Assembly: GCF_003334405.1 (NCBI RefSeq) | Contig: NZ_QOWM01000025.1 | Reading direction: 5' to 3' (one strand) | DNA from: Escherichia coli | Lineage (GTDB): Bacteria > Pseudomonadota > Gammaproteobacteria > Enterobacterales > Enterobacteriaceae | Length of the DNA: 39,980 nt | Shown: positions 16,202-25,877 of the stretch, piece by piece | How positions within the stretch are numbered: the first letter of the stretch is position 1 | Layout of the letters: every line of letters starts with the position of its first letter | Notes under the pieces: generated by a model | The model's input: the letters and a program-made list of their open reading frames with translations, nothing else | Database searches by the model: none | Told to the model about the DNA's origin: nothing | Translations under genes and position numbers: made by a program

Positions 16202-16555
16202 TTAACTGCAAATGTTCTTACTGTCCCCGGAACAGTTTTGTCGAGCCAGGTTGCGGACAATCGCCTGAACCTTTTCCTGTTCACATCGCCAGGCCTCATC
16301 AATAATTTTCGCCGCCCATGCTGGAATATGCGGTGATAAGCGGTAATGAACCCACTTACCTTGCTTGCGGTCCAGCAATAGCCCGCTTTCACGCAGCAAT
16401 GCCAGGTGGCGGGAGATCTTGGGCTGCGACTGGTCGAGAGCAGTGCAGAGATCGCAGACGCATAACTCTCCCAGTTCGCTGAGCAGTAAAACGATGCCCA
16501 GACGGGTTTCATCAGCAAGAATTTTGAACAATTGGATGGGTAACAGAAATGACAT
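16202..16555 (-). CDS. arsR: Arsenic-responsive ArsR/SmtB-family repressor (117 aa)
   Basis: 117-aa ORF with the metalloid-binding ELCVCDLC motif and winged HTH. Confidence 0.92.
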   Translation of the reverse strand: MSFLLPIQLFKILADETRLGIVLLLSELGELCVCDLCTALDQSQPKISRHLALLRESGLLLDRKQGKWVHYRLSPHIPAWAAKIIDEAWRCEQEKVQAIVRNLARQNCSGDSKNICS

Positions 16556-16569
16556 ATTGCGCTCCTGAT

Positions 16570-16625
16570 TGTTGCAGGTAGTGTCTCTCTTCGAAGCGGA
16601 TAAGTCAAAAACATATATGACTTAA
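16570..16625 (-). promoter_or_regulatory. ars promoter/operator (ArsR binding region)
   Basis: Minus-strand sequence …TTAAGTCATATATGTTTTTGACTTATCCGCTTCGAAGAGAGACACTACCTGCAACAATC… closely resembles the ArsR operator/promoter as I recall it from ars operons; contains a TTGACT -35-like hexamer. Confidence 0.55.
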
Positions 16626-16707
16626 CGAATGTGTAAGTGCAGAGGAAGGTAATAGGTGTGAATTTTGAGTTGGCTATTCATTTGAAAGGAGGTCTGAATC
16701 AGGACGT

Positions 16708-16789
16708 AAAAAAACCGACTTTGCGTCGGTTTTTTACTTTCCAGCCCTGAGTTGGTGGCTCTGGCTGGAGTGAGAGAGTTCTTATCTAA
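16708..16789 (-). ncRNA. agrB: AgrB antisense sRNA (repeat copy 1; ends in hairpin ccgacgcaaagtcgg + U-run on the minus strand)
   Basis: About 85-nt unit directly repeated at 16936-17020 (about 90% identity); contains a segment complementary to the dinQ 5' region (copy at 17188-17220); intrinsic terminator at the low-coordinate end. Confidence 0.55.
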
Positions 16790-16935
16790 CAGCTCAATAC
16801 TATTAGCCAGTGGCTAACATTGCAAGAATTAGCGATTTCTTCAGCTGGCGGAGGGAGCACTTCGGTATATATCGCAGTGACGATTTATATACTTTCACTG
16901 GGTCATCGTCATATTAAGCCTTGTCCGAATCCGGA

Positions 16936-17020
16936 TGTAAAAAAACCGACTTTGCGTCGGTTTTTTACTTTCCAGCCCTGAGTTGGTGGCTCTGACTGGA
17001 GTGAGATAGCCATCATCTAA
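16936..17020 (-). ncRNA. agrA: AgrA antisense sRNA (repeat copy 2)
   Basis: Second copy of the about 85-nt unit with the same terminator hairpin (16942-16966); the dinQ-complementary segment is diverged from copy 1 (ctctgactggagtgagatagccatcatctaac). Confidence 0.55.
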
Positions 17021-17083
17021 CGCATCAATGCTAATACCATACTGAAACTATTGCAAGGACGTGCTGGTTTTATAACCTGCATG

Positions 17084-17103
17084 TACTGTATGATTATCCA
17101 GTT
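17084..17103 (+). promoter_or_regulatory. LexA (SOS) box-like site taCTGTatgattatCCAGtt upstream of dinQ
   Basis: CTGT-N8-CCAG spacing close to the LexA consensus CTGT-N8-ACAG; lies about 190 bp upstream of the dinQ start codon. Confidence 0.5.
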
Positions 17104-17294
17104 AGCTCTGAGGCATTTTCACTCTGGCAATGCGCATAAACGCTTTCAAAGTCCTGGTCAGAAGTACGGGTGGTGCCGTTAACTGATGCTCTGGCCGGAG
17201 TGAGAGAGTTCTTATCTAACAATGAGACATGCGCCGTGACAGGCAGTGGATGAGTAAGCGGATGCATTCTCACTCCATCGCATGGAGAAAACGG

Positions 17295-17378
17295 GTGATT
17301 GATAAAGCAATCATCGTTCTAGGGGCGTTAATTGCGCTGCTGGAACTGATCCGCTTTCTGCTTCAGCTTCTGAACTGA
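17295..17378 (+). CDS. dinQ: DinQ small hydrophobic toxin peptide (27 aa, GTG start): MIDKAIIVLGALIALLELIRFLLQLLN
   Basis: Short ORF encoding a single-TM peptide in the arsR-gor gap, preceded by the agr-complementary segment at 17188-17220; the peptide matches my memory of DinQ. Confidence 0.6.
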   Translation: MIDKAIIVLGALIALLELIRFLLQLLN

Positions 17379-17394
17379 TAGCGGAAACGTAATT

Positions 17395-17425
17395 AAGGGC
17401 TAAGAGCACACTACTCTTAGCCCTT
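17395..17425. terminator. Hairpin between convergent dinQ and gor (aagggctaagag / ctcttagccctt)
   Basis: 12-bp perfect stem with 7-nt loop between the dinQ stop (17378) and gor stop (17432); U-tracts are weak. Confidence 0.4.
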
Positions 17426-17431
17426 TAACAT

Positions 17432-18784
17432 TTAACGCATTGTCACGAACTCTTCTGCCGCCGTTGGGTGAATGGCGACGGTATTGTCGAAGTCTTTTTT
17501 GGTTGCCCCCATCTTCAGCGCCACCGCGAAGCCCTGCAACATTTCGTCCATACCAAAGCCAATGCCGTGAATACCGACAATCTTCTCTTCCGATCCAACG
17601 CACACCAGCTTCATGCGGCACGGCTGGCGGTGAGTGGTGACGGCGGTATACATCGCGGTGAAAGAGGATTTATACACTTTCACCTGATCGTCGCCATACT
17701 GCTCGCGCGCCTGCGGTTCCGTTAAACCAACAGTACCAATCGGCGGATGGCTGAAGACCACGGTCGGAATGTTGCTGTAATCCAGATGCTCATCCGGCTT
17801 GTTATTAAACAGGCGTTCAGAGAGACGGCGACCCGCTGCAACTGCCACCGGTGTCAGCTCCACTGCACCCGTGTTATCGCCCACCGCGTAAATACCTTCA
17901 ATATTGGTGTTTTGATATTTATCGACGACGATATAGCCTTTTTCGTTAGTTTTAACGCCAGCGGCTTCCAGGTTGATGTTGTCATTGGCAGGCTCGCGAC
18001 CAATCGCCCAAATCAGGCAATCCACCGTTTCACTGCGACCATCTTCCAGCTCCAGCGTCAGGCTACCATCGGCATTTTTCACTACCGCTTTCGGGATGGC
18101 GTTGGTGTGCAGCTGCGGGCCTTCGGCGTTCATCACTTCGACCAGCGTTTCGGAAATCATCGGGTCGAAGCTGCGCAGCGGCGCATGTTTACGCACAAAC
18201 AGATGCGTTTTCGCGCCGAGGCCGTTAATCACGCCCGCCAGCTCAACGGCGATGTAACCCGCGCCAACAACCGCCACGCGCTCTGGCAAAGCAGGAAGGG
18301 CGAAGAAGCCATCAGAATCAATACCGTATTCCACGCCCGGAATATCCGGGTGGCTCGGACGACCGCCTGTGGCGATCAGAATATGATCGGCCGTGATGGT
18401 TTCGCCGTTTACCTCCAGCGTTTTGGCATCAACGAAGCGGGCAAAGCCTTTGATTACATCAACGTTATTTTTACCGAGCACGTTTTCATAGGAAGTATGA
18501 ATACGGTCGATATAGGCGGTACGGCTGGCGATCAACGTTTCCCAGTTGAATTTATTGATAGTGGTATCAAAACCATAATCCGGGCCGTACATATGGATCG
18601 CTTCACGGATTTGCGCCGCGTGCCACATCACTTTTTTCGGCACACAGCCAACATTTACGCAGGTGCCGCCCAGCTCTTTGGCTTCAATCAGCGCACATTT
18701 CTGGCCGTACATAGCCGCGCGGTTGATGGAGGCGATACCGCCGCTGCCGCCGCCGATGGCGATGTAATCATAGTGTTTAGTCAT
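17432..18784 (-). CDS. gor: Glutathione reductase (450 aa)
   Basis: 450-aa ORF with FAD-binding GxGxxG (IGGGSGG) and redox-active disulfide motif [13 protein letters not shown]. Confidence 0.93.
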
Positions 18785-25776: not shown

Positions 25777-25877
25777 GCCTGATGCGCTACGCTTATCAGG
25801 CCTACATAATCTCTGCAATCTATTGAATTTGCATGTTTTTGTAGGCCGGATAAGGCGTTCACGCCGCATCCGGCATG
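25777..25877. repeat. REP/BIME element pair between uspB and pitA (gcctgatgcgctacgcttatcaggcctac … gtaggccggataaggcgttcacgccgcatccggc)
   Basis: Canonical REP consensus; flanked by two related hairpins (25729-25757 and 25903-25930) that can act as terminators for uspB and pitA. Confidence 0.7.

Follow-up and report, generated by a model that had tools for sequence, protein, structure and literature searches.

The 39,980-nt stretch of Escherichia coli DNA analysed here (the window) almost certainly carries, in the gap between arsR and gor, dinQ-agrAB, a chromosomal type I toxin-antitoxin locus of E. coli, here of the K-12 type. In this window the small RNA agrB is the cognate antitoxin of the membrane peptide DinQ, and sequence comparison suggests that its neighbour agrA is an antitoxin paralogue of another specificity class and not a decayed copy. 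The locus, its regulation and its mechanism are already known from work published in 2013-2016 (Weel-Sneve 2013, PMC3567139; Kristiansen 2016, PMC5066626).

Genomic context of the locus

The arsR-gor intergenic region (16556-17431) lies between arsR (16202-16555) and gor (17432-18784), both on the minus strand, and shows 100% identity to genomes of the K-12 lineage. The genes are ordered arsR-agrB-agrA-dinQ-gor, as in K-12. The DinQ/AgrB family is recognised in part by a position with gor on one side and arsR (or arsC) on the other, which is the position found here. RefSeq concurs in its annotation of the identical region, naming the ORF between arsR and gorA 'damage-inducible type I toxin DinQ' (WP_001295215.1). 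Comparison with the dinQ-agrAB locus of E. coli K-12 MG1655 (PMC3567139, PMC5066626, RF02891, NF041472) revealed no difference in the window: the LexA box, leader elements 1-4, the GUG start codon and the terminator are all alike, and the two are one and the same locus. The gap measures 876 bp from the annotated arsR start to the gor stop versus 823 bp in the published description, which is probably a difference of annotation. The locus was found in 5,423 of 5,426 complete E. coli genomes.

The preliminary description of this DNA, made from its letters alone, had named the locus dinQ/agrA/agrB and recognised it as the known DNA-damage-inducible membrane toxin under the control of antisense sRNA. 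The name agrees with RefSeq, the NCBIfam model NF041472 and the Rfam AgrB model, and the identification with the published module (PMC3567139, PMC5066626); all of the elements listed there are present, with coordinates off by 1-2 nt at most. In the RefSeq/PGAP records dinQ is the only one of the three genes to be annotated, and agrA and agrB are therefore easily overlooked. For the window itself the outcome is a sound annotation and no more; Rfam and NCBIfam models already exist.

The dinQ gene and its promoter

The 27-codon, GTG-initiated ORF for a hydrophobic peptide noticed in the preliminary description is dinQ (17295-17378, plus strand, including the stop codon at 17376-17378), which encodes a single-pass membrane peptide of 27 aa, V/MIDKAIIVLGALIALLELIRFLLQLLN. 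The peptide scores 54 bits (E = 1.4e-14) with the NCBIfam equivalog model NF041472 (toxin_DinQ), the cut-off of which is 30, and is identical to WP_001295215.1. Toxicity of dinQ overproduction has been published, together with northern blots, primer extension and toxicity assays (PMC3567139).

The primary transcript extends from 17101 to 17431 on the plus strand (about 330 nt), with the +44 processing site at 17144. Position 17101 was taken as +1 because the published numbering sets the GUG start at G195 and the Shine-Dalgarno (SD) sequence at G184-G187; with this origin, sequences 1-4, the SD, the GUG and the agrB target all fit the published numbering exactly. The -10 element is TATGAT (17089-17094), and no convincing -35 hexamer is visible in the sequence of the promoter. 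At the 3' end, a repeat search and a minus-strand terminator scan located a 14-bp hairpin (17395-17425) that serves as the common terminator of dinQ on the plus strand and gor on the minus strand; the dinQ terminator has been reported just 3' of the gor stop codon (PMC3567139).

The LexA operator, TACTGTATGATTATCCAGTT (17084-17103, plus strand), which the preliminary description had placed at these positions as a LexA-box-like site, overlaps both the -10 element and +1. Of the 23 sampled Escherichia loci that retain the promoter, 21, E. albertii among them, have exactly this sequence, and two (E. coli E69 and Escherichia sp. E1V33) each differ from it by a single substitution. The published heterology index (HI) of this box is 4.83, and UV induction has been shown (PMC3567139). 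The bare pattern CTGT-N9-CAG is no rarer than expected by chance (six occurrences versus 3.15 expected, a number reached by 9 of 100 shuffles) and is uninformative; hence the assignment is based on the overlap with the -10 element and +1, the conservation and the published HI. A candidate second, weak operator of the form CTG-N10-CTG, TGCTGGTTTTATAACCTGCA, was read from the sequence at 17062-17081, and may tentatively be equated with the second operator that PMC3567139 places near the first, with an HI of 13.82.

The agrA and agrB genes

Upstream of dinQ, on the opposite strand, the preliminary description had noted two tandem units of about 85 nt. The Rfam covariance model RF02891 (the AgrB model, gathering score 40) places them at 16706-16789 and 16937-17020, both on the minus strand, and matches both copies over their full length (agrB 1-84) with scores of 108.4 and 106.2 bits, respectively. 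The two copies are thus present as described; the duplicated unit, however, is larger than the proposed size, since the duplication has a period of 231 bp and a 114-nt stretch is 88% identical between the copies (16692-16805 versus 16923-17036), with the -35 boxes in register. Copy 1, which adjoins arsR, is agrB, and copy 2, which adjoins dinQ, is agrA, because T1TAdb puts agrA between dinQ and agrB. The two genes are identical at 78 of 84 positions, and every one of the six differences falls inside the antisense region, which in agrB covers about 16758-16789.

The agrB promoter (16797-16825, minus strand), as read from the sequence, consists of a -35 element TTGCAA (16820-16825), a 17-nt spacer and a -10 element TAGTAT (16797-16802), followed by 7 nt to the transcription start site (TSS) at 16789. 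The agrA promoter (17028-17056, minus strand), read in the same way, has the same -35 element (TTGCAA, 17051-17056) and spacer length and a -10 element TAGCAT (17028-17033); it lies 231 bp from that of agrB, in register, and the dinQ promoter adjoins it in the opposite orientation. For agrB, -10 and -35 elements close to the consensus and a mapped TSS have been published (PMC3567139). RNAfold leaves the 5' 20 nt of agrB unpaired, followed by two hairpins. Both RNAs end, as had been noted, in one common hairpin, AAAAAACCGAC-GCAAA-GUCGGUUUUUU, followed by U residues; in agrB, a repeat search and RNAfold delimit this intrinsic terminator and its U tract to 16709-16735 (minus strand), a palindrome set between an A tract and a T tract. 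A generic promoter and terminator scan missed all of these agr elements: the promoters match 8 of 12 consensus positions, against a threshold of 9, and in the terminators the A/U-extended stem uses up the U tail. Both agr genes are transcribed away from dinQ without overlapping it, at distances of 311 nt (agrB) and 80 nt (agrA) from the dinQ +1 on the opposite strand; therefore, the antisense RNAs act in trans.

Antisense pairing and the leader switch

The third copy of the repeat (17188-17219, plus strand), recognised in the preliminary description as a segment at 17188-17220 within the dinQ leader, is the published agrB target; it corresponds to G88-A119 of the dinQ mRNA and contains leader sequence 2 (17194-17206). 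A search of both strands of the entire window with the 34-mer at 17188-17221, accepting matches at 22 or more of the 34 positions, returned only these three positions, and the absence of a fourth near-match argues that the triplication is not a chance match. The 34-mer agrees with copy 1 at 33 of 34 positions and with copy 2 at 26 of 34. In the duplex with the target (17188-17219), agrB forms 31 Watson-Crick pairs out of 32, with a predicted energy of -58.2 kcal/mol, while agrA forms 25 Watson-Crick and four G-U pairs with three mismatches, at -42.7 kcal/mol. Both energies were calculated for the antisense region only, as the values for whole-RNA duplexes (-87 and -71.5 kcal/mol) are inflated by threading through long internal loops. 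The earlier proposal that copy 1 matches the leader far better, and that only one antisense RNA pairs efficiently, is borne out by these comparisons and by the published experiments, in which only agrB, of the two RNAs, shuts the SD region and keeps the +44 form of dinQ from being translated (PMC5066626).

The leader contains the four elements of the published switch. Sequence 1 (U16-C28, UUUUCACUCUGGC, 17116-17128, plus strand) keeps the +1 mRNA inactive by pairing with sequence 2. Sequence 3 (17267-17278) and sequence 4 with the SD (17282-17287), together spanning 17267-17287 on the plus strand, form the closed SD hairpin CUCCAU-CGC-AUGGAG, and the SD itself, GGAG, is located at 17284-17287. 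Thermodynamic folding gives a probability of 0.77-0.98 for the 1:2 pairing in the +1 RNA and of 0.62 for the 2:3 pairing in the +44 RNA truncated at +210. The probability of the SD hairpin (3:4) in the free +44 RNA is predicted to be 0.66 at full length and 0.21 after truncation at +210, and it climbs to 0.93-0.94 when positions 88-119 are masked in the +44 RNA. Opening of the SD in the folded full-length +44 RNA is modest, its unpaired probability rising from 0.08 to 0.22. The predicted folds thus reproduce the direction of the structural switch, in which the pairings 1:2, 2:3 and 3:4 are mutually exclusive; SHAPE, in vitro translation and RNase III assays on dinQ have been published (PMC5066626).

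The following course of events has been demonstrated in the literature on this very sequence (PMC3567139, PMC5066626). LexA, bound to the operator over the dinQ -10 element and +1, holds transcription at a low level until the SOS response is induced. The 331-nt primary mRNA is translationally inert, as pairing of sequence 1 with sequence 2 leaves the SD to be sequestered by sequences 3 and 4. Loss of the first 43 nt yields the +44 form, in which sequence 2 is released to pair with sequence 3 and the SD opens; the 27-aa DinQ is then made from the GUG of this form and enters the inner membrane, and its overproduction is toxic. The agrB RNA, constitutively transcribed from the opposite strand upstream of dinQ, pairs through its first ~32 nt with G88-A119 of the +44 mRNA, taking sequence 2 away so that the SD hairpin recloses, and the resulting duplex is cut by RNase III. 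The agrB RNA does not mask the SD directly, but acts ~65 nt upstream of it via the structural switch.

Comparison with other type I systems

The SOS-induced tisB-istR-1 system of E. coli resembles dinQ-agrAB in having a LexA-repressed toxin gene with a divergent, non-overlapping antisense RNA, an inert primary mRNA activated by 5' processing (+42 in tisB, +44 in dinQ), cleavage of the duplex by RNase III, and a toxin that is a small inner-membrane peptide. However, the sequences of the two systems are unrelated, tisB has one antitoxin rather than two paralogues, and agrB, by redirecting a four-element switch that closes the SD hairpin, works differently from IstR-1, which blocks a ribosome standby site. 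The zorO-orzO and shoB-ohsC systems of E. coli share with dinQ-agrAB the position of the antisense RNA 5' of the toxin gene without overlap, and a long structured 5' UTR of the toxin mRNA with translation activated by processing, but they are unrelated in sequence and not under SOS regulation. Moreover, zor-orz is duplicated as whole toxin-antitoxin pairs, while at the dinQ locus the antitoxin gene alone is duplicated.

The dqlB-agrB module of IncL/M and other plasmids, such as pOXA-48, is homologous to dinQ-agrAB in its toxin peptide, leader and AgrB-type RNA (PMC12365149), and the plasmid agr scores 70 bits on RF02891. Its antitoxin acts in trans, and the specificity of pairing has been demonstrated with mismatch and compensatory mutants (PMC12365149). 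Unlike the chromosomal locus, it is a plasmid-borne addiction module with a single agr gene and a different antisense core. A LexA box was not found in the one plasmid copy of dqlB-agrB examined.

Specificity classes among Escherichia strains

The antisense core of the repeat, about 10 nt long, falls into four classes across 24 intact Escherichia loci: GAGAG[T/C]TCTT (class I), GATAG[C/T]C[A/G]TC (class II), GAATGCCCAC (class III) and GAAT[G/A]CCAT[T/C] (class IV). With one exception, the slot on the arsR side is occupied by class I or III and that on the dinQ side by class II or IV. The dinQ target may belong to any of the four classes, yet in these 24 loci it is always of the class of one resident agr copy; depending on the strain, this copy stands at the agrB or at the agrA position. 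The gene at the agrA position is the predicted cognate antitoxin of E. albertii and of roughly half of the intact E. coli loci; in O157:H7 this role is predicted for the other copy than in K-12. A literature search on strain or phylogroup variation at dinQ/agr returned nothing relevant, and the class variation of agr and target appears to be undescribed so far.

The role of agrA

From its duplex with the target, we infer that agrA pairs too poorly to be an antitoxin in this strain; to call it non-cognate is not, however, to call it inert. It is very improbable that agrA and agrB are redundant antitoxins that both repress DinQ synthesis here, even though both genes have intact promoters and terminators and equally good Rfam scores, agrA still forms 29 of 32 pairs when G-U pairs are counted, and deletion of agrA raises full-length dinQ mRNA 3-fold (PMC3567139). 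The three mismatches and four G-U pairs of agrA are clustered in the core and weaken the duplex by about 15 kcal/mol, SHAPE and S30 translation indicate that agrA neither closes the SD nor inhibits translation of the +44 form (PMC5066626), toxicity is counteracted by agrB only (PMC3567139, PMC5066626), and a mismatch of 4 nt is enough to abolish protection in the plasmid homologue (PMC12365149). Less probable still, to the point of being practically out of the question, is that the repeats are structural or recombinational DNA (REP-like elements or duplication scars) next to a spurious ORF. Short ORFs and repeats are indeed common in intergenic DNA, and this ORF has a GTG start and 27 codons only, but the peptide passes a curated equivalog model and is conserved in E. 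albertii and on plasmids, the covariance model matches the RNAs, the locus occurs in 5,423 of 5,426 complete genomes, and expression and toxicity have been shown experimentally (PMC3567139).

A more serious alternative, although we consider it unlikely, is that agrA is a decaying duplicate of agrB without function, as its failure to protect K-12 from DinQ (PMC3567139, PMC5066626) and the lack of one agr copy in some strains would allow. Against this, the promoter, stem-loops and terminator of agrA are intact, and the differences from agrB are confined to the antisense region. Furthermore, the class II core is that of the sole, well-matched antitoxin, at the same agrA position, in E. albertii, NU14, MS15236 and 23CRST031, and the predicted duplex of K-12 agrA with that class II target has an energy of -58.8 kcal/mol; the differences of agrA therefore look allelic rather than the product of random decay. 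Our tentative proposal, to which we would give slightly less than an even chance, is that the two agr genes are slots for alternative specificity alleles rather than one antitoxin and one degenerate copy. If so, the K-12 rule that agrB is the antitoxin and agrA inactive would be strain-specific, and K-12 agrA would be an antitoxin left without its target, with the class II specificity that is probably ancestral. Through gene conversion or imported DNA, the toxin target could also change class and yet be protected at every stage, since a spare antitoxin of a second specificity would be at hand. Should this proposal be upheld, antitoxin specificity in a chromosomal type I system would be polymorphic and combinatorial within a species, K-12 results would not be transferable to clinical lineages, and the toxin-antitoxin field would gain something of modest value, a testable answer to the purpose of agrA.

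Promoter deletion at the repeats

In about 15% of complete E. coli genomes, ST131 included, a repeat-mediated deletion of 199 bp has removed both promoters, and in ST131 dinQ appears promoterless. On the proposal of alternative specificity slots, this state would be a safe exit reached in one step, as the dinQ target recombines with the agrA antisense region and both promoters are lost together. The 'hybrid' geometry of ST131 and plasmids, with agr lying over the toxin leader, was also considered as an ancestral cis-antisense layout. This was rejected because no promoter is evident on either strand and the leader is without +1 to +87, and because the junction falls exactly inside the repeat, copies 2 and 3 being spaced by the same 199 bp that make up the difference.

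Locus organisation

The 876-bp gap (window 16556-17431) between arsR (16202-16555, minus strand) on its left and gor (17432-18784, minus strand) on its right holds the dinQ/agrA/agrB locus, which is already known. The 27-codon GTG-initiated ORF that the preliminary description had placed there is found on the plus strand at 17295-17378 (product V/MIDKAIIVLGALIALLELIRFLLQLLN), with a GGAG motif 5' of it (17284-17287). The earlier recognition of a DNA-damage-inducible toxin with antisense sRNA control is supported by the RefSeq name of the ORF between arsR and gorA, ‘damage-inducible type I toxin DinQ’, by the match of the peptide to the NCBIfam equivalog NF041472 (54 bits, cut-off 30), by full-length matches of both antisense units to Rfam RF02891 (AgrB; 108.4 and 106.2 bits, gathering score 40), and by the 100% identity of an 871-nt region to K-12-lineage E. 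coli genomes. The region is present in some form in 5,423 of 5,426 complete E. coli genomes. An arsR-gor distance of 823 bp was reported by Weel-Sneve in 2013 (PMC3567139); its difference from 876 bp probably lies in the annotated arsR start. A shared 14-bp terminator hairpin (17395-17425, both strands) ends the dinQ and gor transcripts.

RefSeq/PGAP records that annotate dinQ lack agrA and agrB (L001 3001-3871, and other loci fetched from further genomes and numbered in their own coordinates). Minus-strand ‘hypothetical protein’ CDSs lying antisense to the dinQ leader or over the agr region (L005 836-1009, L007 544-759, L012 803-976, L019 572-745) are probably spurious calls.

The two tandem minus-strand copies, earlier described as units of about 85 nt, are present at 16706-16789 (copy 1) and 16937-17020 (copy 2), but the duplicated unit is larger, having a period of 231 bp and a 114-nt stretch that is 88% identical between the duplicates. 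According to T1TAdb, agrA is positioned between dinQ and agrB, so copy 1, on the arsR side, is agrB and copy 2, on the dinQ side, is agrA. The units agree at 78 of 84 positions, and the six differences are all confined to RNA positions 1-26. Their minus-strand promoters (TTGCAA-17 nt-TAGTAT for agrB, TTGCAA-17 nt-TAGCAT for agrA) have -35 boxes in register at 16820-16825 and 17051-17056, respectively, and a gap of 7 nt separates each promoter from the mapped 5' end. As had been noticed before, the 5' segment recurs inside the dinQ leader (17188-17221, same DNA strand) and is closer there to copy 1 (33/34) than to copy 2 (26/34). Both strands of the 39,980-nt window contain no further match to the 34-mer of at least 22/34, and thus the triplication is not a chance event.

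The agr terminators (16709-16735 and 16940-16966) are perfect palindromes bordered by an A tract and, at the opposite end, by a T tract, and weak plus-strand AgrB matches are reported there by Rfam; by their form, these terminators could end transcription in both directions.

dinQ promoter and leader

In the numbering of Kristiansen et al. 2016 (PMC5066626) the GUG begins at G195 and the SD is G184-G187, which places dinQ +1 at window 17101, and with this origin all published dinQ elements fall on the correct bases. On the plus strand these are sequence 1 (U16-C28, 17116-17128), the processing site (+44, 17144), the agrB target (G88-A119, 17188-17219), sequence 2 (G94-G106, 17194-17206), sequence 3 (U167-U178, 17267-17278) and sequence 4 (A182-G187, 17282-17287). 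The LexA-box-like site pointed out earlier, TACTGTATGATTATCCAGTT (17084-17103, plus strand), overlaps both the dinQ -10 element TATGAT (17089-17094, plus strand) and +1; among 23 Escherichia loci with a retained promoter, it is identical in 21 and differs by a single substitution in the remaining two. The minimal CTGT-N9-CAG pattern is no rarer in the window than expected by chance, so the LexA assignment rests on position, conservation and published data, which comprise a heterology index of 4.83, UV induction of dinQ and LexA repression of its transcription (PMC3567139).

As published for this very sequence, the primary (+1) dinQ mRNA is inert because pairing of sequences 1 and 2 permits the 3:4 SD hairpin to form, while processing to the +44 RNA leads to 2:3 pairing and an open SD; agrB binding takes sequence 2 away, closing the SD again and also creating an RNase III substrate (PMC5066626). 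The direction of each switch step was reproduced by thermodynamic folding, which is a prediction and not a measurement. The predicted probability of 1:2 pairing was 0.77-0.98 in the +1 RNA, and that of 2:3 pairing was 0.62 in the +44 RNA cut at +210. For the SD hairpin in the free +44 RNA it was 0.66 at full length and 0.21 after the cut at +210, rising to 0.93-0.94 when positions 88-119 were masked; the predicted SD opening in the full-length +44 RNA is modest only.

Pairing of agrB and agrA with the dinQ target

Duplex energies were predicted for the 5' 40 nt of each agr RNA against the dinQ target of the window. AgrB forms 31 Watson-Crick pairs out of 32 with no G-U pair and one mismatch (C·A at dinQ C96), at -58.2 kcal/mol, whereas agrA forms 25 out of 32 with four G-U pairs and three mismatches, at -42.7 kcal/mol. 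The suggestion that just one antisense RNA pairs efficiently is thereby borne out. Published pair counts (30/31 for agrB, 25/31 for agrA) agree with this, as does the experimental result that SD closure, the block on +44 dinQ translation and protection from toxicity are brought about by agrB and not by agrA (PMC3567139, PMC5066626). In the predicted structure of agrB, its 5'-terminal 20 nt are single-stranded.

The C·A mismatch (window 17196; agr position 24 opposite dinQ C96) is conserved across nearly all loci and classes, apart from Escherichia sp. E1V33 and, on the arsR side, the copies of strain 144, F8111-1SC3 and E. whittamii. Each of its two bases has an intramolecular partner: dinQ C96 pairs with G26 as part of the 1:2 duplex, and the A of agr is paired within agr stem-loop 1.

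Core classes and the cognate agr copy

Beyond the window, 22 chromosomal loci of E. coli and other Escherichia species were sampled across identity classes, together with one plasmid and three fragments. The core of the repeat (about 10 nt; window 16758-16789, 16989-17020 and 17188-17220) falls into four allelic classes across Escherichia, as surveyed in the window and in L003-L020, L024, L027 and L029-L031. In 23 of 23 intact E. coli, E. albertii and clade loci, which were chosen by identity class and are not phylogenetically independent, the dinQ target shares its class with one resident agr copy. This class-matched copy has at most two mismatches to the target (-55 to -70 kcal/mol), and the second copy, where present, has three to six (-44 to -55.5 kcal/mol). 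Of the possible class triples, the eight matched ones all occurred among the sampled intact loci, and the eight unmatched ones were all absent.

The position of the matched copy, which would be the cognate one judging from pairing, differs between strains. It lies on the arsR side in K-12, ML35, WCHEC000837, WCHEC040047, NA3664, APEC O78:H4 and strain 144, and on the dinQ side in O157:H7, CEC03102, N96, STEC1575, RM10466, O178:H19, E67, KFu014 and E69. E. albertii has the dinQ-side copy only, of class II, which matches its own target. AgrA of K-12, also of class II, has a predicted duplex energy of -58.8 kcal/mol with the class II target of NU14 and N96; differences between agr and target within this class are transitions only, so that pairing is kept as G-U. 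In the 24th intact locus, from E. whittamii, the class II target is matched by the dinQ-side copy and the arsR-side copy is class IV-like; it is a partial exception, since both copies pair well (-61.7 and -61.9 kcal/mol). The pairing-based assignment gains support from a plasmid homologue, in which protection is lost through a 4-nt mismatch and regained with a compensatory change (PMC12365149).

Both primary papers treat dinQ of E. coli and Shigella as nearly identical (PMC3567139, PMC5066626), and T1TAdb chooses the best-pairing asRNA per locus with no remark on the pattern. A search of the literature outside subscription journals found nothing on strain variation of dinQ/agr. Extrapolating roughly from a 60-row spread sample, with each identity class given the triple of its fetched representative, about one third of genomes would have an arsR-side cognate copy and another third a dinQ-side one in a two-copy locus, with a single copy in about 14% and the repeat-mediated deletion described below in about 15%.

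Deletions, insertions and plasmid-borne modules

The agr copy number is variable, and the inter-agr spacer is held by 3,842 of 5,426 genomes. Single-copy loci have two origins: O111:H8 and 23CRST031 (L008, L019) retain arsR and have lost one 231-bp agr unit, and B2-type strains, NU14 and MS15236 (L003, L020) among them, keep one agr copy without arsR, arsB and agrB, the larger deletion bringing arsC next to the locus.

A 163-bp segment with the agrA promoter, the dinQ promoter and LexA box, and the leader start is missing from 815 of 5,426 complete genomes, ST131 being one of these. In strain 4750 (L002 1612-1772) and ST131 (L022 about 600-767) a repeat-mediated 199-bp deletion, corresponding to window 17021-17219, runs from copy 2 (the antisense region of agrA) to copy 3 (the dinQ target) with its junction within the repeat. 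It places the distal part of the dinQ leader directly against the agr body and eliminates both the agrA and the dinQ promoter, together with the LexA box and dinQ +1 to +87. The dinQ ORF is intact and still annotated as dinQ, with no evident promoter for it after the deletion; DinQ of ST131 has an L15Q change in the transmembrane helix. The hybrid repeat core GATAGCCCAC (L022 660-692, L002 1665-1697) looks like a crossover of class II (left) and class III (right). The downstream flank of this repeat is of the NU14 (class II) type, against a simple parental assignment.

The dinQ leader of strain F8111-1SC3 (L021 about 1040-1639) is split by an IS200/IS605-type element with a TnpB/InsQ gene, and both agr genes and the LexA box are still there.

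The ETEC1748 plasmid (L023 192-440) encodes a dinQ-like (dql) toxin, MIDKAIIVLGALISLLELIRYLLQLMG, and an AgrB-type gene (70 bits on RF02891) whose 5' end lies 78 nt from the toxin start codon. This module is fused in the same way as the locus with the ST131 deletion, and it has neither a separate target copy nor a promoter region. Matches to the agr body on E. coli plasmids number 127.

Other RNA matches

No tRNA genes were found in the window. Three further Rfam matches scored above the gathering score, all on the minus strand: GadY (1308-1421, 148 bits), ES205 (7200-7271, 105 bits) and ES036/CssrF (25798-25838, 42 bits).
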